Below are positions 3,837 to 36,603 of a stretch of 64,000 nucleotides of DNA, piece after piece. This stretch comes from Minisyncoccota bacterium (GTDB lineage Bacteria; Patescibacteriota; Minisyncoccia; Phycocordibacterales; JABAAK01). Location: the NCBI GenBank assembly GCA_965204115.1, contig OZ241963.1, positions 233,293 to 297,292 of the forward strand, in the 5' to 3' direction. The position numbers and the translations under genes are program-made. Each line of letters opens with the position of its first letter. Within the stretch, counting starts at the first letter, position 1. The notes beneath the pieces were generated by a model. It saw nothing but the letters and a program-made list of their open reading frames with translations. It was not told the DNA's origin and searched no databases.

Positions 3837-4928
3837 TTATTTTCCAGATTTTCTTCGATTACATTCTTTATATAACATCTGACAGTTTTCTGCGACTGTT
3901 TTACCGCCTTCATGCCAAGGGGTGATGTGGTCGGCTTCCATGTCTTCAATTTCAAAATGCTCTTCACACACCGGGCAGATACCTTTTTGTCTTTCGTATG
4001 CTTCACGCTTCATATTGGGAGTAAAGGCACGGATTGAAAGAGATTTCTCTTGGCGAGTTAAAACATATGGGTAGATGCCTGATTTATCCGTGACATCTTC
4101 ATCTTGCATGAGTCTGGTAATTTCGGTTTCCAATTTTTCGGCATTCAGTTTTTTATCTTTGAATTGGTTGTACAAATCGCCCCATTTTACACCTTTCATT
4201 TCATTACGATAGTTAGTGAAAACCTTGCGCACCCATGTAATGACACTTTGAAAATAATCCCAGAGTTCATTTGCATTATTATCATGCTGGTGTTTTGCCA
4301 TATAGTCTGCGACCTCCCCATCATTGATCCACAAAAGAGCGGTTTCCAAGTACTCTTGCCTGATGGGTGAACCTTTTATGAGTGACCCTCCATCATTTGC
4401 TAAAAGATACGCTGCACAACCTGTTTTACTGAATTTTAATTTTGCGTCAGAGAGCCATGGGCCGGTGTAGACCGCGTTTCTGATCTCTTGATCCGTTAAT
4501 TTTTCGCCTGCGATATTAATGGTAAAGAACCAATCCAAACGCTCTTTGTCTGTGCCTTCACAAAAGTAAATCATAAGTTCGTAGTCAAGAATCTGTTTCT
4601 GCTCTTCGGCAGTGAGATTGTGAAAAAAGCGGTCGTTGAGCAAGAAGTCACCATTTACATACTGTCCGATACTGATGGTACGCTGCTGTCCGTCCAACAT
4701 TTCATAGGTGCCATCTCCCTTAACCATCCAGTACATCACATTAAGGGGGAAATTTTGTTTGACGGTCTCAATAACCGCATTGCGCTGTTTGTCGTCATAG
4801 ACAAACTCTCTCTGGTATTTTGGACGAACATCCAATTTGCCATCATAGGCAACAACGCCTTCTTCTTTACTATCTTTATACCCTTTAACCACATCACGAA
4901 CTTTGATTTTCTCTAAGTCAATTTTCAT
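3837..4928 (-). CDS. DUF262 (GmrS/ParB-like NTPase) + C-terminal HNH nuclease fusion; GmrSD-like / type IV restriction-like protein
   Basis: DUF262 signatures KYQREFVY and DGQQRT. C-terminal HNH: CPVCEEHF...DHITPWHEGGKTVAENCQMLYKECNRRK. Confidence 0.7.
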   Translation of the reverse strand: MKIDLEKIKVRDVVKGYKDSKEEGVVAYDGKLDVRPKYQREFVYDDKQRNAVIETVKQNFPLNVMYWMVKGDGTYEMLDGQQRTISIGQYVNGDFLLNDRFFHNLTAEEQKQILDYELMIYFCEGTDKERLDWFFTINIAGEKLTDQEIRNAVYTGPWLSDAKLKFSKTGCAAYLLANDGGSLIKGSPIRQEYLETALLWINDGEVADYMAKHQHDNNANELWDYFQSVITWVRKVFTNYRNEMKGVKWGDLYNQFKDKKLNAEKLETEITRLMQDEDVTDKSGIYPYVLTRQEKSLSIRAFTPNMKREAYERQKGICPVCEEHFEIEDMEADHITPWHEGGKTVAENCQMLYKECNRRKSGK

Positions 4929-4929
4929 A

Positions 4930-5979
4930 CTATTTTTTGTTTTTGATTAAGATACGCTTAAACTTCTTTTTTCCACTGATGTAAATTGCATTTGCAAACG
5001 AATATACACCGTCCGCTCCAACCGATCCTACATGACCAATGATTTCAAATTGTTTGGGGTTGTATTTGTCCACAAAGGTTACAGGCACACCCATTACACC
5101 ACTATAATCCATCGGGATGTCAGTATATTTGTCTATATTGATTGCATCATAGTTATCATATTTTGGATATTCTTTTGGAGTGTATTTTTTATATAGAGTC
5201 AATTCCTCGTGACGCTTGGCGACATCTAAATTGGTAAACCATAAGATGCTGCCCATACTGAAGTACTTAATACCGTCCTCAACTTTGATTCTGGATTCGG
5301 TTTGAATGTCGTAATCCTCAGGCACTTGAAACCATTTGGTTCCGCCGTTATCGTACCCCAACCATAATCGGTTTTCCTTGATAAACTTAAAAATTTCTTT
5401 GTAAGTAATGGCGTTTTGATTCCCTAGGATCAAAAATTCCTTTTGGTGTTCCATTAGTTGTGCAACATAGTCTCGAAAAAGCGAAAACGGTGGATTGGTT
5501 ACCACTATATCTGCCTGTTTAAGCAGGCTGATACACTCATCGCTGCGAAAATCTCCATCACCTTTAAGCGGTGTGGCAACATTGGCGTCTTGTCTTAGTA
5601 ATTGCTTAACATCTCCTAAACTAACCGCTCCGTCATTATTGAGGTCTTTAACTTCGTTAATCTCAATTCTAAATGGCTCTTTTCCTTCTGGCTTCAATCC
5701 TTCTATCTCAACGAGTGGTAATTGCCCGCCAGCAATTGGTGATCTTATGTAGCTTGTGGCAATGAGTTTTTTAAGTCCTAAGGCATTAAAACTGGCAGCA
5801 AAATACTTGAAGAAATTACTTTCATAAGGGTCATCGCAGTTACAATATACAACCTTACCGCGGAACTGCTCTTTATAGTGTCTTAGTTCTTTTTCAATGT
5901 CAACAAGTTGAGTGTAAAACTCATCCTTTTTTGCCTTAGCTGCCTGGTGAAGACCTGTATTGTTCACTTTTGTATCCAT
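4930..5979 (-). CDS. N6-adenine DNA methyltransferase (NPPF catalytic motif IV)
   Basis: IVVTNPPFSLFRDY is motif IV ((D/N)PP(Y/F)) of amino-MTases. N-terminal DEFYTQ and CNCDDPYES resemble the EcoRI-methylase-like adenine MTase family. Stop lies 1 nt before the next gene. Confidence 0.65.
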   Translation of the reverse strand: MDTKVNNTGLHQAAKAKKDEFYTQLVDIEKELRHYKEQFRGKVVYCNCDDPYESNFFKYFAASFNALGLKKLIATSYIRSPIAGGQLPLVEIEGLKPEGKEPFRIEINEVKDLNNDGAVSLGDVKQLLRQDANVATPLKGDGDFRSDECISLLKQADIVVTNPPFSLFRDYVAQLMEHQKEFLILGNQNAITYKEIFKFIKENRLWLGYDNGGTKWFQVPEDYDIQTESRIKVEDGIKYFSMGSILWFTNLDVAKRHEELTLYKKYTPKEYPKYDNYDAINIDKYTDIPMDYSGVMGVPVTFVDKYNPKQFEIIGHVGSVGADGVYSFANAIYISGKKKFKRILIKNKK

Positions 5980-10645: not shown

Positions 10646-13600
10646 TTATACAATGTCCGCGACAATTTTTGCGGTCAGTTCGTCACTCTCTATGGTAAAT
10701 TCAGTGCCCTCCTCCGGACTTGTCGCAACATAGGCGACGCTGCGTACCCGCACCTCCTGTTTTATTTTCTCTTCGTGTGCCTGTATATGTTTTAACTGCT
10801 CGGTAGGTATGTGTACCGACAGTGTGTCTGCTGTTCGTGTCGGTGAAAACCCTTTTTCTTTTCGTATTTTTTGGATATTGCGAACATACTCGCGTACGAA
10901 TCCTTCGGCGCGCAGTTCGTCTGTCAGCGTGGTGCTGAGCTCAATTGGCTTGGCAGCGGCAGGGTCAACAACCACCTCTTTCACATTCACCTCATCCCGA
11001 ATCAGTGCCTGCTGCTCCTCGTCAACTTCCTGCTGCACGATGACTTTCTGCAATGGCTGCCGCACCTTGATTCCCGCTTCCGCCCGCTGTTCGTGTGCCA
11101 CCGATACAATATCCCGCACCACAGCTGTTTTTTCTATCGCGTCTCTTTGAAACCACATTTTTTGCGGCCACTTTGTGAGGTGGACACTGTCCGGCAAAAA
11201 CATTTTTTGCGGATGGTGCTTTCGCATCTCTGAGAATAGGTGCTCGGCGTAGAATGGCGCGACCGGCGCGAGGCATTTTGCAAACTCGGTCAGGATGAAC
11301 CGCAGGGTCTCCCGCGCTTCCGCACCGTCGTCCGTTCGGTTCTTTATCCTGTCTCGTGAGCGGCGGATGTACCAGGTTGATAAGTCCTCCACAAATGCGC
11401 CGATTGGCGCGACTGCTTCGTCGATGTGGTACGACTCAAGCCCTTTCGTCATTGCATCCCGCATTTCAGCAAATCGGGAGCAGATATACTCGTCCAATAA
11501 GCTTCTGCCGCCCCGCTTGTGTGGTAGGTGCGCGTATATTAAATAGAATTTGAGGCAGTTATGCAGCCGCGCGTACACTTTTTTGTATACCTCATCAACC
11601 TGCTCATCCCGAAAATCAAGATCTTCTCCGCGCACCACCGGCGAGCCGAGGAGGTAGTGTCGCAGTGAATCCGCACCGTATCGATTAATGATCTGCATTG
11701 GGTCGGTGTAGTTTTGCAAACTCTTGCTCATCTTTTTACCGTCCGCGGCGCGAATTAAGCCGGTTACCACCACCTGCCGGTACGGCGACCGATCAAACGC
11801 TCCGACCGCGATCGTCATCAAACTGTAAAACCATCCTCGTGTTTGATCCAGCCCCTCACAGATGAAATCTGCCGGAAATCCGCGGCGCAGCAGCGGGTTA
11901 AAGATTCGCTTGTTCTCAAACGGATAGTGGTGTGATCCGTACGGCATCGCCCCTGATTCAAACCAGCAGTCAAATACCTCTTTTGTGTGGTACGCCGGGT
12001 TGCCGTCTGCGTCATTGAGCACCACCTCATCAATGTACGGTCGGTGCAGGTCAACCTCGCCGTTTTCATCCCGCCTCACATGCACATAGCGAATGGGGCA
12101 CACGCTCGCGTTGGCAAGCGGTTTTAAGATGGTGGTTTTTCTGTAGTTTTTTTGAAACTGTGCTTTGGTCGGCGCGATGGAGCGTGCCGTGTTGACAACC
12201 GCCCGATGGGTAACCACCACGATGTTCGCATCCTGATACTCTCTGTCCACTTTTTCAAAAAATCGCAGGATTCGTCCGTAGATGTCTAAAAATGATTCAC
12301 CGCCATCAATGGACTTGCTCATATCACGAAATGCGCCGACTTCGCGGATTGCCCGCCATAGCTCCTGCACCGGTCGATTATGTAAATTCGGCACCTGTAG
12401 TTCGGTCAACAGCGGCTCTTCAATCATTCTCGCGTCGGTCTCTTTTGCAATGTACTCTGCTGTTTCTTTCGTGCGGGTGAGCGGTGAATGAAAAATGATG
12501 GTCGGTTTCATGGGCTTCAGTTTCTGCGCCGTCTTTGCTGCCTGCTCTCTTCCCTTTTCGGTTAAGCCATCCCCCGGTTCTTTTTGACAGTTCAAAACAT
12601 TTTTTTCATTACTCACCGACTGCCCGTGTCGCACAAAGAAATAGCGGTTTCTCGGACGCATTTTTGCGTACATCTCTTCCAGCGAGCCGACGATGATGTG
12701 CTCTCCTGTCTTCTCCACCTTCCACGCCGGTATCGGCGCGCCCCAGAAGCGGTTTCGCGATACCGCCCACTCCCGCGCTCCGGCAAGCCAATTGCCGAAC
12801 CGTCCGTCCCGAATATGCCCCGGTACCCACTTGACCTTTTTGTTCTCGGCAACCATGCGATCTTTGATTTGTTCCGAATGCACAAACCACGAATCGGTGG
12901 CATAGTTCAGCAGCGGTGTTGTGCATCGCCAGCACACCGGGTAGGCGTGCTCTATCGGCTCGCTGTGCAGTAGCAGACCTTTGTTCTGTAAATCTTGGAG
13001 TATTTTTTCGTCCACTGTTTTTGTGTTGCCCGCTTCTTTCGGACGCAAGCCGGCATACTCTTCCAGCTGCGGCACAAACACGCCGTCTTTCGTCACATGG
13101 TGTCGAATCGGCAGTCCCTCCTTCTCCGCGGTTTCCATGTCGTCGGCTCCGTATGCCGGTGCGAGGTGTACAATGCCGGTGCCGACCCCCTGCTCAATAT
13201 ATGGCACCCGCTGCACGCGCCATAGTTTCTTTTTTACCTGCGCATCGTCTTTGGCGTAGAGGTGGTCGAAGGGTGGTGTGTACTCTTTTCCGACCAGTTC
13301 GGAACCCTTTTTTGTCCCTGTGGCTGTGCCGCCGTCCACGATGTGTGCTGCGTCCTGATGCAGGATATATTTCTTTCCTTCCCGCTCGACGACCGCATAC
13401 TCCATACTCTCGTCCACACCGAGTGCGACATTGCCGAACAGTGTCCATGGCGTTGTTGTCCACGCAACGAGACAGGTGTTCGGATCATCTTTCAGCGGAA
13501 ATAGCACATACACTGCCGTGTCGGTCAGCGGCTCATAGCTATCCGCGACCTCTGCGTTGGAGATGACCGTCGAGCAGCGCGGACACAGGTGTAGTGACTT

Positions 13601-14167
13601 GAAGCCATTGCTCACCAAGCCCCGCCGGTGCAGCCGATGAAAGACTGACCACACCGATTCCATATATGGTGTGTTGAGCGTGCGATAGTCGTTCTCCATG
13701 TCCACCCACCGACCGATCCGCGGAATAATCTGTTTCCACTCGTCCACATAGGTAAAGATGGTGTCGCGAATACCGCGGTTAAATTTTTCTATGCCGTATT
13801 CTTCAATGTCCCGCTTTGTCTTTGTCCCGATTTTTTTCTCCATTTCCACCTCAGGCGGCAGTCCGTGGCAATCCCATCCCCACCGACGCAGCACCTGATA
13901 CCCCCGCATCGTCTTATACCGCGGCACCACATCTTTCACGATGCTCGCCAAAATGTTGCCGAAATGCGGCAGTCCCGTCGCGAATGGCGGGCCGTCGTAC
14001 ATAATAAATTGTCTTTTCGGGATGAGTTTTTGTGTTATTCGCTGCAAAAAGCTTTTTTTCTCCCGCCCCTCACTCTTTTCAAAAATGCTGTTTTCCCGCC
14101 AAAACCGTAGCACCCGTTCCTCCCGACCGGCAACCGTTTCCCGTTTTTCGCCTCCCTTTTCAGCCAT
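10646..14167 (-). CDS. ileS: isoleucyl-tRNA synthetase, type 2, carrying an inserted histidine-phosphatase-like domain
   Basis: PPFATGLPHFGNIL (HIGH region), WAVSRNRFWGAPIP, DLHRPYIDE and KMSKS are present. 1173 aa is ~130-150 aa longer than typical type-2 IleRS, due to the RHGQ...VVVTHRAVV block between the PIPAW and DLHRPYID segments. Confidence 0.9.
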   Translation of the reverse strand: MAEKGGEKRETVAGREERVLRFWRENSIFEKSEGREKKSFLQRITQKLIPKRQFIMYDGPPFATGLPHFGNILASIVKDVVPRYKTMRGYQVLRRWGWDCHGLPPEVEMEKKIGTKTKRDIEEYGIEKFNRGIRDTIFTYVDEWKQIIPRIGRWVDMENDYRTLNTPYMESVWSVFHRLHRRGLVSNGFKSLHLCPRCSTVISNAEVADSYEPLTDTAVYVLFPLKDDPNTCLVAWTTTPWTLFGNVALGVDESMEYAVVEREGKKYILHQDAAHIVDGGTATGTKKGSELVGKEYTPPFDHLYAKDDAQVKKKLWRVQRVPYIEQGVGTGIVHLAPAYGADDMETAEKEGLPIRHHVTKDGVFVPQLEEYAGLRPKEAGNTKTVDEKILQDLQNKGLLLHSEPIEHAYPVCWRCTTPLLNYATDSWFVHSEQIKDRMVAENKKVKWVPGHIRDGRFGNWLAGAREWAVSRNRFWGAPIPAWKVEKTGEHIIVGSLEEMYAKMRPRNRYFFVRHGQSVSNEKNVLNCQKEPGDGLTEKGREQAAKTAQKLKPMKPTIIFHSPLTRTKETAEYIAKETDARMIEEPLLTELQVPNLHNRPVQELWRAIREVGAFRDMSKSIDGGESFLDIYGRILRFFEKVDREYQDANIVVVTHRAVVNTARSIAPTKAQFQKNYRKTTILKPLANASVCPIRYVHVRRDENGEVDLHRPYIDEVVLNDADGNPAYHTKEVFDCWFESGAMPYGSHHYPFENKRIFNPLLRRGFPADFICEGLDQTRGWFYSLMTIAVGAFDRSPYRQVVVTGLIRAADGKKMSKSLQNYTDPMQIINRYGADSLRHYLLGSPVVRGEDLDFRDEQVDEVYKKVYARLHNCLKFYLIYAHLPHKRGGRSLLDEYICSRFAEMRDAMTKGLESYHIDEAVAPIGAFVEDLSTWYIRRSRDRIKNRTDDGAEARETLRFILTEFAKCLAPVAPFYAEHLFSEMRKHHPQKMFLPDSVHLTKWPQKMWFQRDAIEKTAVVRDIVSVAHEQRAEAGIKVRQPLQKVIVQQEVDEEQQALIRDEVNVKEVVVDPAAAKPIELSTTLTDELRAEGFVREYVRNIQKIRKEKGFSPTRTADTLSVHIPTEQLKHIQAHEEKIKQEVRVRSVAYVATSPEEGTEFTIESDELTAKIVADIV

Positions 14168-14240: not shown

Positions 14241-16808
14241 TTATTGAGAGGTTTTACTGAGGTCTCCGATGGCGACCCAGCCCTCTTCGTAGCTTACGGG
14301 TGGTGCCTGTTTTTCTCTCTTTGGTGCGACTTTGAGATCTTTTTGTAGGCCGGTTGATTTTGTTGATTTTACTAAATCACCCAATCCGCCGCTGATGTTT
14401 GGGCGTGGTTGCGGTTGCTGTTTTTTTGGTGCTTCCTGCTGTTTGTTTTCTGTATCCGGCTTTGTGACCGACTGCTCGGTCGGTGGTGGCGCTGCCATAC
14501 TGCGTGCAATGGTTCCGGTGATCACGCCGTTTGGTCGGCGGACGGTGTCGGGTTCCTGCTGCTGCCTTTCCTGCCTTCTTCGCTGAGTCAATCTTTCATT
14601 TTTTGCTAATCTGTTTCTCTCTTGCTTTGTTTGTGCGATTGGCTTGTGCGAAGGTGTCTGCCTTTGTGTGTTCTGCCGGGGGTGTTGTGGCCTTTCCGAC
14701 TGCTGGCGCCTGTCCAGTGCAGGAGTTCTACCTCTCTGCCTTTCAGTGTTTCTGTGCTGCTGCGGTTTGCGTTGCTCGGGTCGCTCAGGTCGCTGTCTAC
14801 TGTTGTTGTGGCGTGTGTCATTTCTTTCTCTTTGGGAGGGGCGCTTGTTTCTTAGTTCGCGCGGCCTTTCAGGAGCGGCATCTCGTGTGCGCTGTGGCGC
14901 AGTGTTTCTTGGTTCACGCTCCTGCCGTCTTTCGTTTCTTTTGCGGTCGGTGCGCTGTGGTTTCTGTATGTCCGCTTTGCGAGTATCTCTTTGTATATTC
15001 ATACCATCGTCTTTCTTTTCGGACACAGCAGGCGTGATGGGGTACTCTTTTTTCTCTTTTGGTTCGTGTGCTGTCTTCTGTGCCGGTGTTGGGGTTGGCG
15101 CTGCTTCAGTACTTTCTGTATCTGACACCGGCTCCGGCTCCGGTTGATTTCGTTTGAAAATTCCTTTGAGTAGCGGCGCGCGCTTTTTTTCAGTGCTTGC
15201 TGCATCTGCTCTCTCATCTCTGCTGTCTGCTTTGCTGTCTGTCTTAACGATAGGGACCGACTTGGCATCTTGTTTTTCTGCCTTGGCTTTGCTGTCGTCT
15301 TGTGCGGTTTGTTTTTTCGGCTTTTCTGTTTTTTGTTTTTCGGTATTCGTCTGTCCGCTGCCGTGTTGCTGTATCTGTTGCACTAATCCTTTCAGCGGGG
15401 TGTGCGTCTCGTTTCCTTTTTGGCCGCCCTGTTTCTTTCTATCAGAGCCCTGCTGTTTGCCGCCTTTCCCTGTTTTTTCTTTTGCCTTTTCATCCTCCGC
15501 CAAGTTATCCGCGACTATTTTTTCTATCACATCCCGGTCAACGCCGTAGGTGTCCATTGTCCGCTGCACCACCTCTTCTTCCATTGAATCTTCAGTCGGC
15601 GGCGGCTCAAAGAAAGTTCGCGCAGAAAACGGCACAGACCCCGCGCCGTCAATGTTCAAGGTGAGGTAGATGTGGTATCGTGGCAGCGCGACTAAGTCCT
15701 CCTCCGCGATGTCCGGCGCGAATTGCTTTGAGATAATTTCCGCGTCAACCGGACCAACCCGAAACGATACAAAGGTGCCGACATTGCCGAACACTGCATC
15801 CCGAATCGCGTCTCCTCCGCCGGTGTCATCGGTATACAGCTGCCCTAAATACTGGTGCGCCATCACCAAATTCAGCTTGTACTTCCGCGCCTCGGATAGG
15901 ATGTCGGAAAAAGAGGAGTTTGCGAATGATTGGAACTCGTCAACGAAAAAGTTGCACGGGTTTGCTGCTTCCAGATGGGCGCGATCCAGATCGCTCCGTG
16001 ATAGTGCGGCGAGGTAGATTTTGGTCGTGAACAACACGCCGAGCATGCGCGCGTTGTTCTCGCCGACCTGCCCTTTTGAAAGGTTTACCAGCAGTATCTT
16101 CCCTTCATCCATAATCTCCCGAAAATTAAACGCTGACTTTTCCTGCCCGATGATGTTTCGCATCAGCGGGTTGGAGGTGAACTGTCCGAGCTTGTTTTGG
16201 ATGGATGGTGTCGCCTCCTGTGCGTACCGCTCGGTATAGTTTGCGTATTCCTCAACCCAGTATTTCCGCACCTGCGGGTCTTTCAGGTTGGCAACCACCT
16301 TTTCACGAAAATCTTTGCTGGAATACATCCGCCCCACATCAAGCAGCGTTGTTCCCGGATACTCAATCAACGCCAACAGTGTGTTCTGTAAAATGTACGC
16401 CATTCGATCCGACCAAGTTCCCGCTCCCCAAATCTTTTCAAATGAGGCCATTAAGCTGCTTACCACCAAATGCCGTTTATCGTATCCGATGTCCTCCATA
16501 ATGTTCAGCCCAATCGGTTTTTCCTGGTAGTGCGGTGCGAAGTAGATGATCTTGTCCAGATGCTCCGGTGTCACATACTTCAGCAGTGCCTCAACGGATT
16601 GACCGTGCGGATCCATAAATATCAGCCCGGTGCCGTTGCGAATGTCCTGCATCGCCAGCATTTCTAACAGCGTTGACTTTCCGGTTCCTGTCTGCCCGAT
16701 GACATAGATATGCCGTGACCGATCCTTTTCCTTAATGCCGAAGCGCACGGTATTCCCCCGCTTTTCTAATTCTCCCACTTGTACTATTCTTTCAGGATCG
16801 TATGCCAT
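14241..16808 (-). CDS. TraD/TraG/VirD4-family type IV coupling-protein-like ATPase (cytoplasmic, no N-terminal TM) with a long charged low-complexity C-terminal tail
   Basis: Walker A YVIGQTGTGKST and Walker B NFFVDEFQSF. The AAA-like fold resembles T4SS DNA-transfer ATPases. Residues ~438-830 are K/E/R/Q/P-rich and disordered. Confidence 0.5.
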   Translation of the reverse strand: MAYDPERIVQVGELEKRGNTVRFGIKEKDRSRHIYVIGQTGTGKSTLLEMLAMQDIRNGTGLIFMDPHGQSVEALLKYVTPEHLDKIIYFAPHYQEKPIGLNIMEDIGYDKRHLVVSSLMASFEKIWGAGTWSDRMAYILQNTLLALIEYPGTTLLDVGRMYSSKDFREKVVANLKDPQVRKYWVEEYANYTERYAQEATPSIQNKLGQFTSNPLMRNIIGQEKSAFNFREIMDEGKILLVNLSKGQVGENNARMLGVLFTTKIYLAALSRSDLDRAHLEAANPCNFFVDEFQSFANSSFSDILSEARKYKLNLVMAHQYLGQLYTDDTGGGDAIRDAVFGNVGTFVSFRVGPVDAEIISKQFAPDIAEEDLVALPRYHIYLTLNIDGAGSVPFSARTFFEPPPTEDSMEEEVVQRTMDTYGVDRDVIEKIVADNLAEDEKAKEKTGKGGKQQGSDRKKQGGQKGNETHTPLKGLVQQIQQHGSGQTNTEKQKTEKPKKQTAQDDSKAKAEKQDAKSVPIVKTDSKADSRDERADAASTEKKRAPLLKGIFKRNQPEPEPVSDTESTEAAPTPTPAQKTAHEPKEKKEYPITPAVSEKKDDGMNIQRDTRKADIQKPQRTDRKRNERRQEREPRNTAPQRTRDAAPERPRELRNKRPSQRERNDTRHNNSRQRPERPEQRKPQQHRNTERQRGRTPALDRRQQSERPQHPRQNTQRQTPSHKPIAQTKQERNRLAKNERLTQRRRQERQQQEPDTVRRPNGVITGTIARSMAAPPPTEQSVTKPDTENKQQEAPKKQQPQPRPNISGGLGDLVKSTKSTGLQKDLKVAPKREKQAPPVSYEEGWVAIGDLSKTSQ

Positions 16809-16813
16809 AGGTA

Positions 16814-17008
16814 TTATTCTTTGGTAGCGTGCTCTGCTTCGTCTTCTTCTCTTTTCTCAGCAATATGCCGTGTGCCGCTGTACACCGAGTAGATAAAGAA
16901 TAAAGCTCCTAATCCAAATGCTACCCATCGCATCCACTCCGACGGCACTCCCACAAACGGAAACGACAGCAGCACAACACTCGCGACAAATATGAGACGG
17001 TATATCAT
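16814..17008 (-). CDS. small two-TM membrane protein (64 aa)
   Basis: Two hydrophobic helices; 6 nt downstream of the ATPase gene. Confidence 0.3.
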   Translation of the reverse strand: MIYRLIFVASVVLLSFPFVGVPSEWMRWVAFGLGALFFIYSVYSGTRHIAEKREEDEAEHATKE

Positions 17009-17033: not shown

Positions 17034-17966
17034 CTATGCCGCTTTTCTTCCGCTAATGTGTGACTCCGGGTCGCAGATGATGAGTGAGGCAATGTCCTCC
17101 TCGAAGTTTGTTGCGTTACTTTCCTCCCTCATCGCCCTCCCTCTTTCATAGAGGTGCAGAGAAATACTCTTTCCGTCTTCGTGTTCGGCAATAAATTTTT
17201 CTGTCGCATCCGGTCCTATGCCGTACTGCTTGACATCCATGATGTACACATCATCTCCCACAATAACCGCCTCTGTGTAGATAGATTTGGTGGTGGTTGC
17301 CGTGTCATGCACACTCCCCCAGTGGGGAATTTCTTCTCCCCACTTGTCTTTATCGCTCTGAATAATGTCTGAGTATTTTCTCGGCGGCTCTTCGGTTATA
17401 TGTATCTCTTTCGGTCGCACATAATATGTTTCTTTTACTCTTTCCAGAATTTTTTGTTTCAGCATCTCTGCTCTTTCTTTTCGCATTTGTTCCTTAATCT
17501 CTTCTCTTTTCAATCTTTCCCTCTCTTTGCGATCAGATTCCACTATCGCTGCAAGCTCCGGGCTAATCAACTCCTCTTTCTGTAATATGAGGAAAAAAAC
17601 ATTGTTGTCAAAATGCTCGCTTTGGATATCGTCATCGTCAAAGTGCTCATTTTGAATGAGGGGTTCCAAAGTGTCAAGAAGGTTCGGGACATTTTTCATC
17701 CATCGGGGAAATTGATTCAGGAGGTCTCTCGCCTCTGCCTTGCTTTCTTTGTATTTTTCACGGGCAGAATACCATCTTCCTTTCACGGTCAGAAAGCCGT
17801 CCAGTGTCAGACGGGCGGCTTTGTCATCATCTTCCAGGAAAAATTTTCCCACCCCTTCCCGGTTTCTGTGCCTAAACTCATTCTTCTTCGGGCTAAACTT
17901 CCGTCTGTGTTCTGCGTTGACTCTTATTCTCTTCATACAGTGATAGTATCGCCTGTGTCCTATCAC
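17034..17966 (-). CDS. hypothetical protein (310 aa), basic N-terminus with an acidic/coiled-coil middle
   Basis: Intact ORF with genome-typical composition; no recognisable motif. The start may be an internal Met. Confidence 0.35.
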   Translation of the reverse strand: MIGHRRYYHCMKRIRVNAEHRRKFSPKKNEFRHRNREGVGKFFLEDDDKAARLTLDGFLTVKGRWYSAREKYKESKAEARDLLNQFPRWMKNVPNLLDTLEPLIQNEHFDDDDIQSEHFDNNVFFLILQKEELISPELAAIVESDRKERERLKREEIKEQMRKERAEMLKQKILERVKETYYVRPKEIHITEEPPRKYSDIIQSDKDKWGEEIPHWGSVHDTATTTKSIYTEAVIVGDDVYIMDVKQYGIGPDATEKFIAEHEDGKSISLHLYERGRAMREESNATNFEEDIASLIICDPESHISGRKAA

Positions 17967-20219: not shown

Positions 20220-22928
20220 CTACGCCAACATCTCTTCGCGTTTCTTTGTTTTTGCTTTCGCTTTTTTGGTGGCGGTGCGTTTTTTGGTGGTGTCAAATTT
20301 GTATTCGCCGTTCTCAATGCAGATGTTGACGCTTGAACCCTTGCCGAGGTTGCCCTCAATGATGGCGTTGGCGAGTGGGTTGAGGAGGTCGGTTTGGACT
20401 TTTCTGCGGAGCGGGCGGGCACCGTATTCGGCGTGATAGCCCTCCTTGCCGATTTTTTCGTAGACCGCGCGGTCAACGGTGATGGTAATTTCTCGTTCGG
20501 CGAGGCGCTGTATTGCCTCGTCTACTACCAACGTTACCACTTTTCTGATACTCGTCTTATCAAGCGGCTTGAAGACGATTATTTCATCCAATCGGTTTAA
20601 AAATTCCGGCCTGAATGATTTTTGCAAAGTTTCCATCACTCTATTTCGAACCTCGTCATACTGTCTTGATCGCTCTTCGGATTTTTTCACCGCCTCTTCA
20701 AACCCAATTTGGTTCATATTGATCAGTTTCTCAGAGCCGACATTAGAGGTGAGAATGACCACCGTGTTTTTAAAGTTTACCACCCGCCCCTTACTGTCGG
20801 TGAGGCGGCCGTCATCCAGCACCTGCAGCAGCACATTGAACACATCAGGGTGCGCTTTCTCCACTTCGTCAAACAATACGATGGAGTACGGTCGGTGGCG
20901 AACTGCCTCGGTCAATTTCCCCGCTTCTTCATAGCCGACATAGCCGGGAGGCGCGCCGAGTATTTTAGACACCGTGTGTCGCTCCATATATTCAGACATA
21001 TCAAGTCGTATTAATGCCCTTTCGTCATCAAATAGATACTGCGCGAGTTGCTTTGTCAGCTCGGTTTTTCCGACCCCGGTCGGACCGAGAAACAGGAATG
21101 AGCCGACCGGTCGGTTTGGGTTTGCTATGCCGGCGCGTGACCGCTTAATTGCCGCGGCGATTTTTTCTATAGATTCATCCTGTCCGATAATACGCTTTTT
21201 TAATTCTGCTTCCATTCTGGTCAATTTTTTCGCCTCGCTCTCAAGCATTTTTGTCGCCGGAACGCCTGTCCACCGCGCGATCACATGCGCGATGTCTTCT
21301 TCGGTCACCTCTTCCCGCAGTATCTTTCTGTTCTTTTGTAATCGCTTCAGTCGTGCTTGTGCCCGCTTAAACTTGCTCTCAATCTGCGGAATGTCCTTGT
21401 ACCGAATTTCTGCTGCCTGGGTAAAGTCGGCCTTACTCTCTGCCTCTTCGCCGGCATAGCGTTTCTGCTCAAGGTCGGACTGCATCTCCTTAATCTGCTC
21501 GATGGTTTCTTTCTCATTCTTCCAACGCACTTCCAACTCCCTGCTTTCCTCCTTTACATCGGCGATTTCTTTTTCCAGCTGCTTCATTCGCTCTTTGGAA
21601 CCTTCATCCTTTGTTGCTTCGTGGTCTTTTTTCACCGCCTCCATCTCAATCTCCAGCTGCATAATTTTGCGATGCGCCGAATCCAGTTCAGGCGGCTTGT
21701 TCTCAAGCGACACCCGTATCAGGGAAGCCGCTTCGTCCACCAAGTCAATCGCCTTGTCCGGCAAAAATCGTTCAGTGATATATCGACTGCTTAGCTGCGC
21801 TGCCGCCACGATTGCCGCGTCAGTAATGCGTACCCCGTGGTACACCTCGTACCGTTCCCGCAAACCGCGCAGAATAGAAATTGCGTCTTCAACGGACGGT
21901 TCAGATACATACACCGGTTGAAACCGTCGTGTCAGTGCACCGTCTTTTTCAATGTGCCGCTGATACTCTTTTAAGGTGGTTGCGCCGACCATGCGCATTT
22001 GCCCCCGAGCAAGTGCCGGCTTTAGGATATTCGCGGCGTCCATCGTCCCTTCAGCATTTCCGGTGCCGACCAGTGAGTGTATTTCATCCACGAACAGAAT
22101 ATATTTATCCCCTGCGTCTTCCACTTCTTTCATCACTTTTTTCAGACGATCTTCAAACTCTCCCCGAAACTTTGTCCCGGCGAGCATAGACACCACATCC
22201 AAACTGTACAGCTCCTTTGAGCGCATAGATTCCGGCACATCACCGGAGACAATTCGCTGTGCTAACCCCTCACCGATCGCGGTTTTACCGGTTCCCGCCT
22301 CACCGATGAGAATCGGGTTGTTTTTTGTCCTGCGCGATAGTATCTGGATAACCCGCGCGGTTTCCTCATCCCGCCCGATAACCGGGTCCAGTTTATTTTC
22401 CCGCGCCATCTGTGTGAGGTTGCGTCCGTATTTTTCTAAACTTTTTGCTTTTGGGTTCTGCACCTCCTCCTTGCTTTCCTTTCGCAGCTGTACGATTGTT
22501 TCGTGGACTTCTTTGGCGTGCAGTCCGTACCCTTCCAGCAAATTGCGCAGGATACCCGGCTTTTCAAGCACTGCTAAAAATAGGTGTTCAGTTGAGATGT
22601 GCTTTTCTTTCATTGCGCTCGCAATTTTACCTGAATGCTCAAGCACGATGGCAAGCTCCGGTGTCGGGTAGAGCTGCACAATCGGTGACCCCTCTATATC
22701 AAATGATGAAGCGCGGGATTCTAACAGCCCAATCGCCTGGTTGTATAGCGCGTAGGGGTCAATGTTTAATTTTTGCAGCACCGGCTGCACAATACCGTCT
22801 TCCTGCCCGACCAATGCGGTGAATAAATGTACCGGGCTGATATTTTGATGTCCGTTATCAACGGCAAGTTCCTGCGCCATCCGAAAGGCCTCTTTCGCTT
22901 TCGCGGTAAATTGCTGGAACGATGACAT
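20220..22928 (-). CDS. clpB: ATP-dependent chaperone ClpB
   Basis: Clp N-domain, two AAA modules ([15 protein letters not shown]; [15 protein letters not shown]), long coiled-coil M-domain between NBD1 and NBD2, and a Lys-rich C-terminal tail. The start is probably MSSFQQF at 22928 rather than 22946. Confidence 0.85.
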
Positions 22929-22985
22929 ATATGGATATGGTAGCACACCCTTTCGGCGGTTTCAACCACTTTACACTCCCCTGAT

Positions 22986-28528: not shown

Positions 28529-29503
28529 CTAGTAGTCGTACTCAACTGATTCCCAGTAGCACTCCTGGGAGCCAACGAAGTGGGAACCGCTACCACCGCC
28601 CCCGCCAAAGTTGTAGTAGTTGTTGTACACAGGGCCTCTATACTGGTCGCCCCCGATGAAGTCGCGACCGACTTCCTCAACTTTGACGCCTGAATTTTTT
28701 GCGATTGCCTCGAGCAATCGCATCTGATTCCCCAGTAGATAGCCTTGGTGGTTCAAGGTGTCTACGAGGGCTATAAGTTGCTCAAACTCCTGGGTACCGT
28801 TCTCCCGTATGGCATCAATCAGCTTATTGGCCATCTCGTTCGCGCTGTTCATAGCGCTTATAAGGGCCGCATTCTTCTGATTGAGTTGGAACTGTAGCCA
28901 GGCTTCCCGCTCCTCCAGATCCTCGAGTCGTTGAGTGGAGGCCGGTCTTAGTAGGGAAAGTAGTTCTTTGTTGTACACTACTGTCCCTCTTTTGTTCAAG
29001 AACTCCCAGATCATTGCCTGATATTCCAGGGTTAGCCGCTTTTCATTTAGCTGTGCCTGAAACTCCGTTTGCTGCGCGGATGGGAGTGTCTGCGCAAACG
29101 GATTGAGGACGCTCTGCGGCGTCTGGGCGTTTCCAGGAGGTGTCGTTGTGGCAGTGCCTCCACCGCCTGTCCACGCTGGGTCTATGCGGCTCAGGCGAAC
29201 GATTGCCTTTTGCCCTTCTTTGATCGCGGGTGTCGGCGTTACTGACGCCGGGTTAACGAGGAACAGTGTGTAGCGTGCGGTGTCGCCGCCGCGTTTCAAT
29301 TCTGCTATCTGGGTGGTAGTCACCCCGCCGTTTGCATCAATGAATATCTGATTCTGCTGCACCCATTGCAGGATCTCTGTGCCTGTTCCTATTTTTCGGC
29401 CTTCGGGACATTGTTCAAGCCCGGTGACCAGGGTTATCTCTGCCGTTGCTGTTGTCGTTGCGAATGTGAAGATTGCTAATATTACTATTGCTGCGAATTT
29501 CAT
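28529..29503 (-). CDS. secreted hypothetical protein (324 aa)
   Basis: N-terminal signal peptide MKFAAIVILAIFTFATTTATA, Thr/Gly-rich linker, Gly-rich C-terminus. Confidence 0.45.
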   Translation of the reverse strand: MKFAAIVILAIFTFATTTATAEITLVTGLEQCPEGRKIGTGTEILQWVQQNQIFIDANGGVTTTQIAELKRGGDTARYTLFLVNPASVTPTPAIKEGQKAIVRLSRIDPAWTGGGGTATTTPPGNAQTPQSVLNPFAQTLPSAQQTEFQAQLNEKRLTLEYQAMIWEFLNKRGTVVYNKELLSLLRPASTQRLEDLEEREAWLQFQLNQKNAALISAMNSANEMANKLIDAIRENGTQEFEQLIALVDTLNHQGYLLGNQMRLLEAIAKNSGVKVEEVGRDFIGGDQYRGPVYNNYYNFGGGGGSGSHFVGSQECYWESVEYDY

Positions 29504-29562
29504 TTTTTCTCCTTTTTACGAGGAGGTGTGCAGCGACGCTGCAACACCTCTCTCTCTGTTAT

Positions 29563-31491
29563 CTATCGGTGCCCTCCCCTCACGAAGCGTCTCTTCTTTT
29601 TGTCGGAGGAGGGTTGTTCGGTTGTGATAAACTCAAAATCAATAGATGTCTCTGTACGACCGGACCGTGGCAGTAGGTATTCGGTGGTTGTTATCACCAC
29701 TTTGTACCCTGTTGCCGTTGGATTGGCCGACAGAAACTCTTGCTGTGCTGCCGCCATCTTCCGCATATGTGGATTGCGGAGGTACTGCTGGTACTCCGCC
29801 TTGCTCAGGAGGTCAGCGGCCGAAACGGTGATTGACGTCGGTTCTCCGATGAGAACCCTTTCTTCAGAAGAAGTTTCGGCGCTGTCATTGGTGTCGGTGT
29901 CCGTTGCTTCGCCACTTGCGTCTGGGGTCTCTGGTTTTGGCTGCCCCAGGAGTGCGAACCGGATCTTCGGCCCCAGTTCAGGGGTCCGGTCAAAAATCAC
30001 CTGAAAAGGTTTCTCTTTGAACGGATAGGCCTTGTGGTCCGTTATCTCGATCTTCATTTCATTTTTTGCCCACCATACAAGGCGGTCAAAGAATTCCTGA
30101 GGATCGAAATGATCCGTTTTGTCGGCAAAGTACACCAACTCGGTGAGTGATGTGATGTTCGCTCTGTCCGCTCCCGGCTCAAATCGCACCTTCTTGCCGG
30201 TCTCCCCTTCCTCTATGAAATAGATGATGGGGAAATCGTTTTCAGTGATTTGTCCTGGGTGTTTCCCTAATCCCTCGCCGATCAGGGTGAATAGCTCTAA
30301 GCTGGTTAGGTCTACGCTGTGCTTCTGTCTGAGCGTGTTCACCCGCAGAGATACGATGTCCTCGTACCTCTGAACGGTGTCACGGACTGCCGTTATGACC
30401 CGTTCGACCTCCATCGCACCTTCCGGGGTCAGGGTGTCGTATCGGATGATAACCGAGCGCTTCCACTTCCCGCCTTTTTCAGGGCGGTGTAGGAGCCCGT
30501 TATTCGAACGGAGGAAGCCGTACACCCTTTCGGGCTCAATACCCCACTCTTCGGCAACCTTAAGTGCCTCAAAGTCGGTATTGATTGGTTTGCTCTCCTT
30601 GTATCGCTTTTTGAACGCAACGGACACTTTTCCTTCTGCGTCTCGCCATTGGTAGACGATAAACTCAGGAAGAGGTTCCTCTGGTGAGACCTCCAATACC
30701 TCGTACAAGTTCTCTAAGCCGGCGGTCCAGTTCTCAACCTTTACGCCGTTTTTACTGAGGTAGGCAAGCGCCTTCTCCGTACTGGTGAACGGTTTCGGCT
30801 TGATTTTGATTTCTTCCGGCGTGGGTGGGGGCGCTGGGGCCTTATACCACTTCGGCGGGAATACATACAACGATGGTTTCCCGTCGGGGCCGAGGAATGG
30901 TCTGCCAGTTGTCGGGTCAAGGTTGACTGCGATTGACATCCGGTAGTCCGTGACTCGTTTCTTGCCAGCAAAGTATTTGCTGGACAAGATTTGTGACATC
31001 ACGAAACTCTGCGGCTCTGATACACTGAGCTCGCTGCCAACCCATTCAACGAATTCGTTGAAATGGGAGCGACTCTTGATCTCATTTGCATGGATCAAGC
31101 TGAATTCGAAGTCAGCAGAGTTCTCATCAATCCTCGATGCCGTTGCGTCTCCCGGAATAGTGACCATTATTTTGACCGCTCCCTCGCCCTGTTCAGGGAC
31201 GGGGACGATTTGGGCCACGACTGGTGGGTACACTCCGTCCTTGAACCGCACTGAGTGTTGTTCCTTTGCGGCAGCTTCAAATGCGGCAGGGTTTACCAAC
31301 ACCGCCTTGAATTTTTCGATCTTCTCCCATGTGTCGAGCGTTTGTGGGAGATCCGGGTTCATTCCCCTTGCTGTTAGTTCAGTCAAGATGGATGAATCTA
31401 ATACGCCGATCCCAATTAACGCGAGACCTGTTACTCCCCCGATTAAGAGGAGTAGCCCTATGACGAACAAGAACTTTTTCATCTTTTGCAC
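29563..31491 (-). CDS. large secreted or membrane-anchored hypothetical protein (642 aa)
   Basis: N-terminal hydrophobic signal/anchor FLFVIGLLLLIGGVTGLALIGIGVL; no enzymatic motif recognised. Preceded by a consensus sigma70-like promoter. Confidence 0.45.
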   Translation of the reverse strand: MQKMKKFLFVIGLLLLIGGVTGLALIGIGVLDSSILTELTARGMNPDLPQTLDTWEKIEKFKAVLVNPAAFEAAAKEQHSVRFKDGVYPPVVAQIVPVPEQGEGAVKIMVTIPGDATASRIDENSADFEFSLIHANEIKSRSHFNEFVEWVGSELSVSEPQSFVMSQILSSKYFAGKKRVTDYRMSIAVNLDPTTGRPFLGPDGKPSLYVFPPKWYKAPAPPPTPEEIKIKPKPFTSTEKALAYLSKNGVKVENWTAGLENLYEVLEVSPEEPLPEFIVYQWRDAEGKVSVAFKKRYKESKPINTDFEALKVAEEWGIEPERVYGFLRSNNGLLHRPEKGGKWKRSVIIRYDTLTPEGAMEVERVITAVRDTVQRYEDIVSLRVNTLRQKHSVDLTSLELFTLIGEGLGKHPGQITENDFPIIYFIEEGETGKKVRFEPGADRANITSLTELVYFADKTDHFDPQEFFDRLVWWAKNEMKIEITDHKAYPFKEKPFQVIFDRTPELGPKIRFALLGQPKPETPDASGEATDTDTNDSAETSSEERVLIGEPTSITVSAADLLSKAEYQQYLRNPHMRKMAAAQQEFLSANPTATGYKVVITTTEYLLPRSGRTETSIDFEFITTEQPSSDKKKRRFVRGGHR

Positions 31492-31571
31492 TCCTTGTAT
31501 TTGCTCCTCCGATGTGTCGAGGGCAAAAAAATTGTTGTTTGGTTGTTATTGGACAGATAAAGTCCATTGCA

Positions 31572-31600
31572 ATTATACCATTTTGCTATTGTTTTGTCAA
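31572..31600 (-). promoter_or_regulatory. sigma70-type promoter for the 642-aa secreted-protein gene (TTGACA-N17-TATAAT with extended TG)
   Basis: On the minus strand this reads TTGACAaaacaatagcaaaaTGgTATAAT, ~75 nt upstream of the ATG at 31491. Confidence 0.5.
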
Positions 31601-31721
31601 GGCACCACAGCGACACCTTTGCTGTCTGTGAGTATAGTAGCATAGGTGCTTTTTTTCCTTTTTTTTACGGGATATTTTGTGTGATTAGTGAGTTCTAAAA
31701 ATAGGTGTATTGGGGGGTTGT

Positions 31722-31756
31722 TTTAAAACAGAAGAAGGGACGGCTGGGCCGTCCCT
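31722..31756 (-). terminator. hairpin terminator downstream of the 31797..32777 gene (possibly bidirectional)
   Basis: GGGACGG-CTGGG-CCGTCCC stem-loop with a U-run on the minus strand (ttcttctgtttt). Confidence 0.4.
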
Positions 31757-31796
31757 TCTAACGAACATTACATTAATACAGTTGAGCGAGCTTGTG

Positions 31797-32777
31797 CTAT
31801 TTCAGTTCAACTTTTCCTTCGCCGCCTTCTTCAGATCCGTTATTCCCTTCCTGAAGCTTGTTCGCCTGCGCAATCGCTTCGGCGAGCTGACTTGTTTTCT
31901 TGTCACGGCGCTTGCCCCAGAAGCCCTTCACGCCATCTTTCGTTTCCGTAAAAATGACTTTATAGGCCTTGAAGCCATAGAATAAGACCAAGGGGAGCAG
32001 GATGATTACCGCACCAATCAGCCACCAGTTTATACCGTTGTCGTCGTGGACGACGGTGGTGGTTGAACCGTGGTTACCGTTGTGGGTTTCATCAGCAGCT
32101 GGAGGAGCCGAGCTGGACGGGCTGTAAGCGGTTGTTGCAACCAGGCCGTCGGCGATGAGCAAAGGCAAAATGTCCTGATTGGCCTTCATACTGCCAACGG
32201 TGTTGGCGGCCAACAGATACATCTCTTGGACATGGTCGCGATAAGCTTTCCACGCTTCCAGATTTGCACCTGCTTCCGGCACTGTAATTTCTTGGGCCAT
32301 ATCGTTTGCCGCAACCATCATGTCGAATGCGAGCTCTCGTTCTGCCTTGGTCGTTGCGCTCCCAGAGCTTGCAACCACCATTGCTGCTTTGATTTTCTCT
32401 TTCGCAGCTTCGGCTTCGCGTTTTGCGACGCGGGCAGCCTGCATGTCCTCGAACTTCTGTTTTGTAATCTTGTACCCGTACTCAGAGTCCGGGACGAAGA
32501 TTGCGTCTTTCTCAATTGTTCCTTGGAAAACAAACGCTTGGTCAATTAACCTACGCGCTGCGTGCGTCCCGCCGCGAATGTTATTCACGCGGGTTTGGGG
32601 AGACGCGTTTTCGTTTGGCTCCGCCGGGTTGTCTAAACTGCGGGGGGCGTCATGGATTGGCGGTACCGTTCCTGCGGTTCCTCCGCCTTCTCCTGGTTGG
32701 CGAAACTGTGCGTCTGCAGCAAACACTGTCATCAAAACTGTCAAAACTGTTAATGTGAAAATTCTAATGCGGGTCAT
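31797..32777 (-). CDS. secreted hypothetical protein with a C-terminal TM anchor (326 aa)
   Basis: Signal peptide MTRIRIFTLTVLTVLMTVFAADA. C-terminal WLIGAVIILLPLVLFYGF helix followed by a charged tail. Confidence 0.45.
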   Translation of the reverse strand: MTRIRIFTLTVLTVLMTVFAADAQFRQPGEGGGTAGTVPPIHDAPRSLDNPAEPNENASPQTRVNNIRGGTHAARRLIDQAFVFQGTIEKDAIFVPDSEYGYKITKQKFEDMQAARVAKREAEAAKEKIKAAMVVASSGSATTKAERELAFDMMVAANDMAQEITVPEAGANLEAWKAYRDHVQEMYLLAANTVGSMKANQDILPLLIADGLVATTAYSPSSSAPPAADETHNGNHGSTTTVVHDDNGINWWLIGAVIILLPLVLFYGFKAYKVIFTETKDGVKGFWGKRRDKKTSQLAEAIAQANKLQEGNNGSEEGGEGKVELK

Positions 32778-32921
32778 TGTGGGTGACTCCTTTTTATAAG
32801 ATATTTGTAGGTTGGGGGCCTACGAAAAATGAAGATTCACCCAATCTGTGTTCCGATTATCATAATAGCGAAAAAAAATAATTTGTCAACCCTTTAGGGT
32901 ATTTTGGCATATCTCTTTTCA

Positions 32922-32980
32922 GTATTAAAAATAAGTCGGGCACCTCTCACTTATCACTACTGTGCTATGTGAGGGTGCCC
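32922..32980 (-). terminator. rho-independent terminator downstream of the lipoprotein gene
   Basis: GGGCACCCTCACATAG...GTGAGAGGTGCCC hairpin with a U-run on the minus strand. Confidence 0.4.
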
Positions 32981-33031
32981 TTCTTTAAGATTGATCATTG
33001 AAAAATTGAATGAGCTAAAAAATTGAAAGAG

Positions 33032-34194: not shown

Positions 34195-34215
34195 ATAGGT
34201 TTAGTATACAGGGGT

Positions 34216-36546: not shown

Positions 36547-36603
36547 TGAACATTACTTTTACATAAATACCTGACACTGTCGCTGTGTCAGGTATTTTCT
36601 TTT

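Follow-up and report, generated by a model that had tools for sequence, protein, structure and literature searches.

What does an ATPase built like a coupling protein of type IV secretion do in a housekeeping operon, when it carries no membrane anchor of its own and ends in some 400 residues of basic, disordered sequence? The question is raised by a gene at 14241-16808 (minus strand, stop codon 14241-14243) in a stretch of 64,000 nucleotides of contig OZ241963.1 from a Minisyncoccota bacterium (assembly GCA_965204115.1, positions 233,293 to 297,292), to which we refer as the window. The gene encodes a protein of 855 aa, here called the ATPase. A first-pass annotation of the window had described it as a VirD4/TraD-like Walker A/B ATPase without N-terminal transmembrane (TM) helices, with an unusually long tail, and as a candidate for DNA uptake or transfer. 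Our reading is that the ATPase belongs to a Patescibacteria-wide, vertically inherited and TM-less branch of the VirD4/TrwB coupling-protein ATPases, and taken jointly with the mechanism proposed below we give this an even chance of being correct.

The core of the protein (residues 1-437, 15498..16808, minus strand) is predicted to be a nucleotide-binding domain of the TrwB/VirD4 kind into which an all-alpha domain is inserted. Its composition is that of an ordinary globular protein, its net charge is -6, and in the AlphaFold2 model, a monomer computed from an input alignment of 119 sequences, the predicted local distance difference test (pLDDT) score was above 90 over residues 1-450. The Walker A motif GQTGTGKST (residues 38-46, 16671..16697), the Walker B motif FFVDEFQ (residues 287-293, 15930..15950) and the sensor AHQY (15849-15860), all on the minus strand, contain residues that are invariant in the 119-sequence alignment, namely G38, T40, G41, G43, K44 and S45 of Walker A, D290, E291, F292 and Q293 of Walker B, and the HQ of the sensor. 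The Walker motifs and the sensor Gln align with their counterparts in TrwB, Walker A with the TrwB P-loop. In the model eight helices (~residues 109-235, 16104..16484, minus strand) are inserted between the two Walker motifs, and this insert is the counterpart of the all-alpha domain found in coupling proteins. In a Foldseek search against the PDB the top matches were TrwBdeltaN70 and TrwB-nucleotide complexes (E 8e-14, target TM-score 0.65-0.69), and the alignment of the core with TrwBdeltaN70 covered ~420 columns at 17% identity, the all-alpha domain included. They were followed by Cagbeta and then by HerA (target TM-score 0.49), DotL and the C-terminal domain of VirB4. Because the structure comparison ranks TrwB above HerA, the VirD4/TraD-like fold call of the first-pass annotation was right and HerA is disfavoured.

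Searches with sequence profiles gave a more diffuse picture. The Pfam family TrwB_AAD_bind (PF10412) was matched above its cut-off (27.3 bits vs 20.5), as was DUF87, the HerA central domain (35 bits vs 23.2), which had the best Pfam E-value (2e-8). TraG-D_C (PF12696) stayed below threshold (20.1 vs 22) with a match to core residues 284-360, and was found above threshold in relatives of the ATPase. All NCBIfam matches were far under their cut-offs and mostly covered the P-loop alone: the best score was 45.6 bits vs a cut-off of 366 (TraD), and the CD1115 VirD4-like family, the best full-length curated match although a weak one, reached 28.5 vs 250. The VirB4 model TIGR00929 matched only the P-loop stretch (23 bits vs 643), and no VirB4 N-terminal domain was found in the ATPase. 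The PDB sequence search likewise returned only the P-loop stretch of TrwB and HerA, which is uninformative past the superfamily level. According to the model, the core is the TrwB soluble-domain fold, a P-loop nucleotide-binding domain plus the all-alpha domain, with its catalytic residues intact. The ATPase has the fold of a type IV coupling protein (T4CP); a transmembrane domain (TMD) in cis, linkage to a type IV secretion system (T4SS) or relaxase, and scores above the curated equivalog cut-offs are missing.

Kyte-Doolittle analysis revealed no hydrophobic or TM segment anywhere in the 855 residues, and an N-terminal extension or anchor was absent from every orthologue examined that shares the architecture of the window gene, in which the core begins at the start of the protein and is followed by a C-terminal tail (type 1). 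The absence of TM helices noted in the first-pass annotation thus holds in cis, but a 64-aa open reading frame (ORF) with two TM helices, MIYRLIFVASVVLLSFPFVGV and WMRWVAFGLGALFFIYSVY, lies directly upstream (16814..17008, minus strand) and is kept with the ATPase. Its stop codon is 5 nt ahead of the ATPase ATG. Only a very short loop separates the two hydrophobic helices, and the C-terminal tail that follows them is charged. We built a hidden Markov model (HMM) from 13 ORFs of this kind and ran it on the window and 85 related loci. All 61 matches lay upstream of the ATPase on the ATPase strand, and the mini-ORF was present in ~59 of the 70 loci with enough upstream sequence. In 13 loci it directly adjoined the ATPase gene, in 26 a single gene, usually DUF4015 glycosyl-hydrolase-like, lay between the two, and in 18 the distance was larger; the linkage is therefore at the level of the operon and not always one of translational coupling. 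The mini-ORF also stays with the ATPase where rsmI has been lost, for example in the related locus L001. The TMD of TrwB and TraJ has ~70 residues and two helices, and T4CPs without a TMD that are paired with a separate membrane protein are a recognised class, for example TraJ-TraI of pIP501 (PMC7431656). In size and topology the mini-protein matches this TMD, the very part removed in the TrwBdeltaN70 crystal form. From gene order, size and topology we infer that the mini-protein and the TM-less ATPase form a split coupling protein, with the mini-protein as the candidate membrane anchor in trans. As a separate observation, the gap between the mini-ORF stop and the ATPase was 2 mod 3 in 10 of the 13 adjacent pairs (2, 5, 8, 8, 17, 38, 50, 59, 74 and 119 nt; the window gap is 16809-16813), a frame relation typical of translationally coupled genes, in loci that are phylogenetically non-independent and with ATPase starts inferred from alignment.

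The C-terminal tail (residues 438-855, 14244..15497, minus strand) is basic, with a net charge of +37, and consists of K (11.7%), Q (11.5%), R (11.5%), P (9.6%), E (8.9%) and T (8.4%) as the leading residues, with Kyte-Doolittle means of -1.1 to -2.9. In the AlphaFold2 model ~320 residues have a pLDDT below 50 (459-470, 482-563, 565-674, 676-726, 750-807 and 820-828), and only short helices are predicted at 474-481, 727-749, 809-818 and 847-854. This agrees with the earlier description of a disordered, K/R/Q/P/E-rich tail of ~390 residues at 14320-15497, which are indeed residues 438-830, since nearly all of 459-828 falls below a pLDDT of 50. The last ~50 residues of the protein are less uniform than the rest of the tail, and two conserved motifs are found there.

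Conserved islands are set into the tail in a fixed order, and the rest of the tails cannot be aligned. Island 1 (PLKGLVQQIQQ, residues 471-481, 15366..15398, minus strand) is a basic amphipathic helix ~35 residues past the core, and its position and character are kept in 17 close orthologues and in a three-way tail alignment. It is followed by an Arg/Gln-rich spacer (residues 610-749 as annotated, 14562..14981, minus strand) that is not conserved, forms the expandable part of the tail and ends in the charged helix 727-749; in residues 600-752, R makes up 25% and Q 16%, and the spacer has no counterpart in the tail of the relative P0001 and a different sequence in L006, the closest complete genome. 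The next island, RRPNGVITGTIARSMA (residues 757-772, 14493..14540, minus strand), is common only to the closest relatives: it aligns with RRPNGVVVGTVSRSMA of L006, and the relative P0121 shows RRPSGVVVGTVSRSV. The tail ends here in GGLGDLVKST...KDLKV and PPVSYEEGWVAIGDL. Island 2, or motif A (GGLGDLVKSTKSTGLQKDLKVAPK, residues 807-830, 14319..14390, minus strand), is conserved in the close clade and lies ~40 residues from the tail end, where the model places the helix 809-818 at a pLDDT of ~71. Island 3, or motif B (PPVSYEEGWVAIGDL, residues 836-850, 14259..14303, minus strand), is the putative terminal docking motif and stands five residues from the C-terminus; its pLDDT is 62-76 here and ~79 in the model of the orthologue P0014.

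To count these motifs, regular expressions were run on 190 tails of non-redundant orthologues and on composition-matched shuffles. The family-wide form of motif A, sLKxALxxVL, was found in 96 of the 190 tails vs 1.2 in shuffles. Motif B was found in 157 (vs 0.5 in shuffles), its median distance to the C-terminus being 4 residues, 27 of the tails carrying the GW type and 130 the EVPEExL[KR]x[IL][LF] type, which in most Parcubacteria reads (F/Y)EVPEExL[KR]x[IL][LF]. Every close orthologue keeps the motifs of the last ~50 residues in the same reading frame, and no DNA tandem or long direct repeats were found in the tail of the window ATPase gene; for these reasons the tail is translated sequence and not an artefact of frameshift, repeat expansion or assembly. 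With its low predicted order, its variable length and sequence and a conserved motif near the C-terminus, the tail is, as modelled, a disordered tether with a terminal short linear motif.

Two further observations concern the islands. Island 1 has a hydrophobic moment of 0.56 and resembles the membrane-targeting sequence of FtsA in moment and hydrophobicity; as a membrane-targeting helix it was a weak candidate and was set aside, as R-rich segments scored equally high in the hydrophobic-moment scan. The FtsZ of the window (50543-51790, plus strand) ends in TGWRKLWDKH, that of L001 in IGWKKLWGKK and that of the related locus L073 in PPFLRRKKK, a classical PxFLR peptide. The G-W-x-x-[LI]-x-D pattern is loosely like the terminal EGWVAIGDL of the ATPase, and comparison of the FtsZ C-terminal peptide with the motif type of the ATPase gave no convincing co-variation.

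The tail was present in all 190 non-redundant orthologues, so that the homology search proposed in the first-pass annotation leaves no room for a tail that relatives lack. The shortest tail had 49 aa and the longest 669 aa (median 168). The tail of the window protein, at 418 aa, is the second longest of the 190; the length that the earlier remark called unusual belongs at the upper end of a family-wide trait and is not a singular invention. About a dozen of the listed representatives of 50%-identity clusters have tails of ~400 aa or more, as calculated from protein lengths minus match ends. A net positive charge was found in 94% of the 190 tails (median +7). Among the closest relatives the tail measures 321 aa in P0001 (87% core identity), 484 aa in P0121 (91%) and 669 aa in L006 (91%). 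The length differences fall between island 1 and motif A, and the spacer sequence is unalignable even at this 87-91% core identity. In L006 a unit of 369 nt is repeated 2.9 times at 100% identity and in frame (11723-12788) inside the 669-aa tail. The repeat is either a tandem triplication of very recent date or, with lower probability, an artefact in the assembly of the L006 genome. Tail length shifts by expansion of the spacer between the motifs, and the 418 aa seen here are a lineage-specific expansion of the Arg/Gln-rich spacer without a new domain. Two tails were found to contain an S1 RNA-binding domain, that of the type 1 protein P0138 (residues 506-579, 79 bits) and that of P0234 (residues 689-753, 25.7 bits), a paralogue of the second architecture described below.

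The family is large. A word-indexed search returned at least 8,000 core relatives, of which the named ones are nearly all Patescibacteria (including Kaiserbacteria, Paceibacterota and Adlerbacteria) with 56-91% identity over the whole core, and an exhaustive HMMER search gave 20,549 clusters of 50% identity at E<=1e-3 and 5,030 at E<=1e-30. More than 590 loci were found in a scan of species-representative genomes. Across orders the core is 52-58% identical with ~80 invariant residues (119 sequences). Besides type 1 there is a type 2 architecture, in which 1-2 TM helices and DUF8128 (~350 aa) precede a core of 42-48% identity and a disordered tail (L088 8477-11269, L090 3996-7397, L091 1761-4631). 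In the three contexts fetched, the type 2 gene was directly preceded by a gene for a Sigma70_r4 (HARE-HTH) protein of ~340 aa, and in one of the three dprA-topA lay upstream; no second paralogue of the ATPase was found in the window. Outside this group, core homologues with 25-37% identity over >80% of the core occur on Sulfolobus, haloarchaeal, Bacillus and Streptomyces plasmids and in SPO1-like Bacillus phages, where phrog_5156 (SPO1 gp27.4, Bacillus phage G gp156) scores 188.7 bits. A homologue on a Sulfitobacter plasmid (37% identity) is an isolated core-only gene of 395 aa amid transposases and is uninformative. Family members carry the PGAP name 'type IV secretion system DNA-binding domain-containing protein'.

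As far as the accessible passages of a 2025 survey go (Quinonero-Coronel et al., PMC12102498), the family is known already, by HMM, as orphan T4CP homologues: those passages give 5,713 VirD4-type 'T4CP homologues' in 2,918 of 3,035 Patescibacteria genomes (~96%), only 148 of them near virB4, and state that exaptation of the T4CP homologues 'cannot be ruled out'. In the same passages we found no account of the missing TMD or the mini-protein, of tails or tail motifs, or of a division into type 1 and type 2, and the word 'disordered' is absent from the text of PMC12102498. It is the anatomy that is newly described here, that is the split anchor, the tail grammar of a basic spacer and three ordered motifs, the mechanism of expansion and the S1 fusions.

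Putting these elements together, we propose that the ATPase cores would assemble into a ring, as TrwB does, and that the mini-protein would hold this ring at the cytoplasmic membrane in place of the ~70-residue TMD missing from the core. The long, flexible and basic tail of each subunit would then act as a capture arm, six per ring if the ring is a hexamer. The basic spacer, which in some relatives contains an S1 domain, may bind nucleic acid, and the terminal motif may dock a partner protein or fold back onto the ring. In this way the membrane-held motor would be supplied with a polymer, RNA or DNA being the likeliest. Patescibacteria account for much of the diversity of bacteria and live on macromolecules obtained from host cells. 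The orphan VirD4-like ATPase gains a concrete anatomy with this proposal, namely a soluble motor, a candidate anchor in trans and a basic arm with docking motifs and sometimes S1, and this anatomy makes 'possibly exapted' a testable statement, for instance through the terminal peptide PPVSYEEGWVAIGDLSK or EVPEExLKKIL in other clades.

A bolder extension, which we consider unlikely, is that the mini-protein and the TM-less ring with its RNA-binding-type tails are a cytoplasmic motor that moves host nucleic acid (RNA or DNA) into or out of the cell, in which case it would act via T4SS-like tubes or another channel. A lifestyle of Patescibacteria that 'feeds on host RNA' was proposed in a 2026 preprint (10.64898/2026.06.21.733656). 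If the extension were true, the motor would be the missing energising component of that lifestyle, and it would explain why VirD4-type homologues are reported in ~96% of the genomes surveyed in PMC12102498, independently of linkage to virB4.

Several points weigh against our reading of the ATPase as a membrane-anchored, TM-less coupling protein. We infer all four of its working parts: the oligomer, the membrane association, the binding of nucleic acid and the partner. Of the proteins examined, just 2 had an S1 domain, and the 190 tails contained no S1-like sequence. Most Parcubacteria have 1-2 genes between the mini-ORF and the ATPase, and a fusion of the hairpin to a type 1 core was not found among 11 N-extended representatives, which were fragments of the type 2 (DUF8128) architecture or carried unrelated extensions. 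The pLDDT of 62-79 for motif B fits docking on the core and docking on another protein alike. Finally, other proteins of the window have basic extensions as well: sigma-70 (54401-55750, minus strand) and both tandem RNase J paralogues (59314-61095 and 61113-63044, plus strand) have Lys/Arg-rich low-complexity N-terminal extensions, and ClpB (20220-22946, minus strand) has an internal K/R-rich stretch of 40 residues and a Lys-rich C-terminal end. The composition of the tail may therefore be in part a habit of this genome.

Comparison with characterised systems shows how far the analogy with coupling proteins extends. With TrwB of R388 and the VirD4 T4CPs (PDB 1E9R, 1E9S, 1GKI, 1GL6, 1GL7; Cagbeta 8DOL) the ATPase shares the soluble-domain fold over ~420 positions. 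Unlike them, it is only ~17% identical, has no TMD in the polypeptide, is chromosomal and vertically inherited, is unlinked to virB4 or a relaxase, falls below the NCBIfam T4CP cut-offs and has a basic disordered tail of 50-670 aa. The pair of ATPase and mini-protein is like TraJ-TraI of pIP501 (class iii, Llosa and Alkorta 2017, cited in PMC7431656) in that the T4CP is soluble and a membrane protein is encoded separately, and both are found in a monoderm, MPF-FATA-related setting. The pairing here is deduced from gene order alone. The plasmid pIP501 differs further in being conjugative and in encoding a relaxase and a complete T4SS operon. TraD of the F plasmid has a flexible C-terminal extension whose extreme C-terminal residues dock TraM. 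The ATPase is like TraD (PF12696, TraG-D_C) in being a coupling protein with a flexible C-terminal extension and a docking tip, the latter putative here; in contrast to TraD, its PF12696 match is in the core and not in the tail, YEEGWVAIGDL and EVPEExLKxIL are unrelated to the TraD tip, and no TraM-like gene accompanies it.

In FtsK a membrane anchor is followed by a long low-complexity linker and a ring motor. FtsK and SpoIIIE are of the same FtsK-HerA superfamily of additional-strand catalytic E (ASCE) ATPases and share the design of anchor, linker and ring motor, but the motor of the ATPase is N-terminal and its linker C-terminal, and it has no alpha or gamma domain. An oligomerising core, a variable linker and a conserved C-terminal interaction peptide are also known from FtsZ, with its C-terminal linker and conserved C-terminal peptide, and from SSB, with its intrinsically disordered linker and acidic tip. 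The ATPase may be likened to both in this plan, by analogy only, as the folds and functions are unrelated. The phrog_5156 proteins and the plasmid ATPases annotated as DUF87 or T4SS-DNA-binding have homologous cores but are located on mobile elements, and the phrog_5156 phage proteins have an N-terminal extension of ~390 aa, unlike the ATPase.

Other explanations of the ATPase have to be weighed against the one we prefer. It could serve as the T4CP of a Patescibacteria T4SS of the MPF-FATA type, encoded away from virB4 and with tail motifs that dock VirB4, VirB6 or effectors, which is possible but in our view doubtful. The T4CP fold of the core would fit such a role, and so would the presence in the same genome, 17-20 kb from the ATPase, of at least three genes for VirB2-like T4SS_pilin (PF18895) paralogues above threshold (33895-34194, 34216-34611 and 36970-37353, minus strand) and two weak ones (34608-35363 and 36604-36951, minus strand), which flank an Amidase_2 gene (35995-36546, plus strand). 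Given this pilin cluster, the genome very probably has a Patescibacteria T4SS. CD1115, after which the VirD4-like family with the weak full-length NCBIfam match is named, belongs to CTn2 of C. difficile. In the accessible part of the survey CTn2 is listed among the MPF-FATA prototype elements, T4CP genes are often distant from virB4, and VirB4 is present in 2,417 genomes, or 80% of Patescibacteria assemblies (PMC12102498). However, no VirB4, VirB6 or relaxase was found in the 64-kb window or in the flanks of +-10 kb of the 85 related loci, and the passages of the survey at hand report more genomes with VirD4-type homologues than with VirB4 (2,918 vs 2,417) and, from transposon sequencing of S. 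epibionticum, a t4cp homologue that is dispensable for epibiotic growth, unlike other T4SS genes, which were essential (PMC12102498). The high conservation and the synteny with rsmI, mur and glycosyltransferase genes also look more like a core cellular function. Another candidate role is that of an FtsK-like translocase of the chromosome or nucleoid that is independent of T4SS, acts in division or envelope growth and uses the tail as a tether to division or envelope proteins. Mur ligases lie upstream in 21 loci and GT4 glycosyltransferases downstream in 52, the related locus L004 has FtsW and SecDF, trxB-ftsZ-ftsA stand directly downstream of the ATPase in L001, and the layout of anchor, long low-complexity linker and motor recalls FtsK. 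We nevertheless think this role improbable, as FtsK was not among the 50 Foldseek matches listed, neither Pfam nor NCBIfam gave a match to the FtsK_SpoIIIE motor or the gamma winged-helix domain in the ATPase, and the synteny with envelope genes may be mere conserved gene order. A search of the literature on the presence or absence of FtsK in Parcubacteria gave nothing usable; FtsK appears in transcriptome papers on TM7x.

That the ATPase is a HerA-type protein of repair or defence, and not of transfer, is very unlikely. DUF87 has the best Pfam E-value, HerA is in the Foldseek list, and PADLOC gave weak matches, confined to the P-loop region, with mad8 (51 bits) and HerA models. By structure TrwB is the better match, however, and over the full length including the all-alpha domain; the N-terminus in the AlphaFold2 model is only a beta-hairpin with no HAS barrel, and the neighbourhood contained neither a HerA partner such as NurA or Sir2 nor a further MADS gene. 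The core is thus not firmly HerA, whereas a firm HerA-like placement was one of the outcomes that the first-pass annotation had named as refuting its proposal, and a defence reading was rejected since the weak mad8 and HerA matches come without companion defence genes. Hardly more credible is the view that the spacer is neutral junk drifting by replication slippage and that only the core, perhaps with the terminal motifs, matters. The failure to align the spacer at 87-91% core identity, the wide range of tail lengths, the perfect recent triplication in L006 and the K/R-rich extensions on other proteins of the window are all what neutral drift would produce. On the other side, no orthologue is without a tail (minimum 49 aa in 190), 94% of the tails are net positive vs an acidic core, the order of the islands is conserved, and the independent S1 insertions argue for a selected tether of some length and charge. 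For the extra length of the tail in the window protein, drift of the spacer can be reconciled with our preferred explanation, a TM-less coupling-protein ATPase with a tethering tail.

The genomic neighbourhood is of a housekeeping kind, as the first-pass annotation had it: the ATPase gene lies between rsmI and ileS, and the order clpB-rsmI-mini-ORF-ATPase-ileS-recO of the window is the same in L006. No terminator-like site was found on the minus strand between the ATPase and ileS. Synteny with rsmI was found also in loci of just 53-66% identity. In 82 loci the recurring neighbours were rsmI, Mur ligases and DUF4015 upstream, and a secreted LTD+PKD protein and GT4 glycosyltransferases downstream. 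No competence gene adjoined the ATPase in the window or in the 85 related loci. As judged from sequence comparison, the ATPase gene is chromosomal and vertically inherited.

Some further features of the window were recorded. Between rsmI and the mini-ORF lies an E/K-rich ORF of 310 aa (17034-17966, minus strand) with a GC content of 0.43-0.44 vs ~0.52; it has no Pfam, NCBIfam, PADLOC or PHROGs match and is absent from the syntenic locus of L006. Being without a family, low in GC and missing in L006, it was rejected as a part of the system and is probably a lineage-specific acquisition. The pilin cluster adjoins gyrA and stands amid unannotated secreted and membrane proteins (28529-38760). IleS (10646-14167, minus strand, 1173 aa) owes its length to a complete histidine-phosphatase domain (His_Phos_1, residues 510-691, E 5e-31) within the catalytic domain of the class-I synthetase; the IleS of L006 (1166 aa) is 77% identical over the full length, and the insertion is therefore conserved. 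A restriction-modification pair at 3837-5979 (minus strand) consists of an EcoRI-type adenine methyltransferase (4930-5979) and an endonuclease with GmrSD_N and HNH (3837-4928), and unannotated ORFs of 559 aa and 200 aa lie downstream of it.

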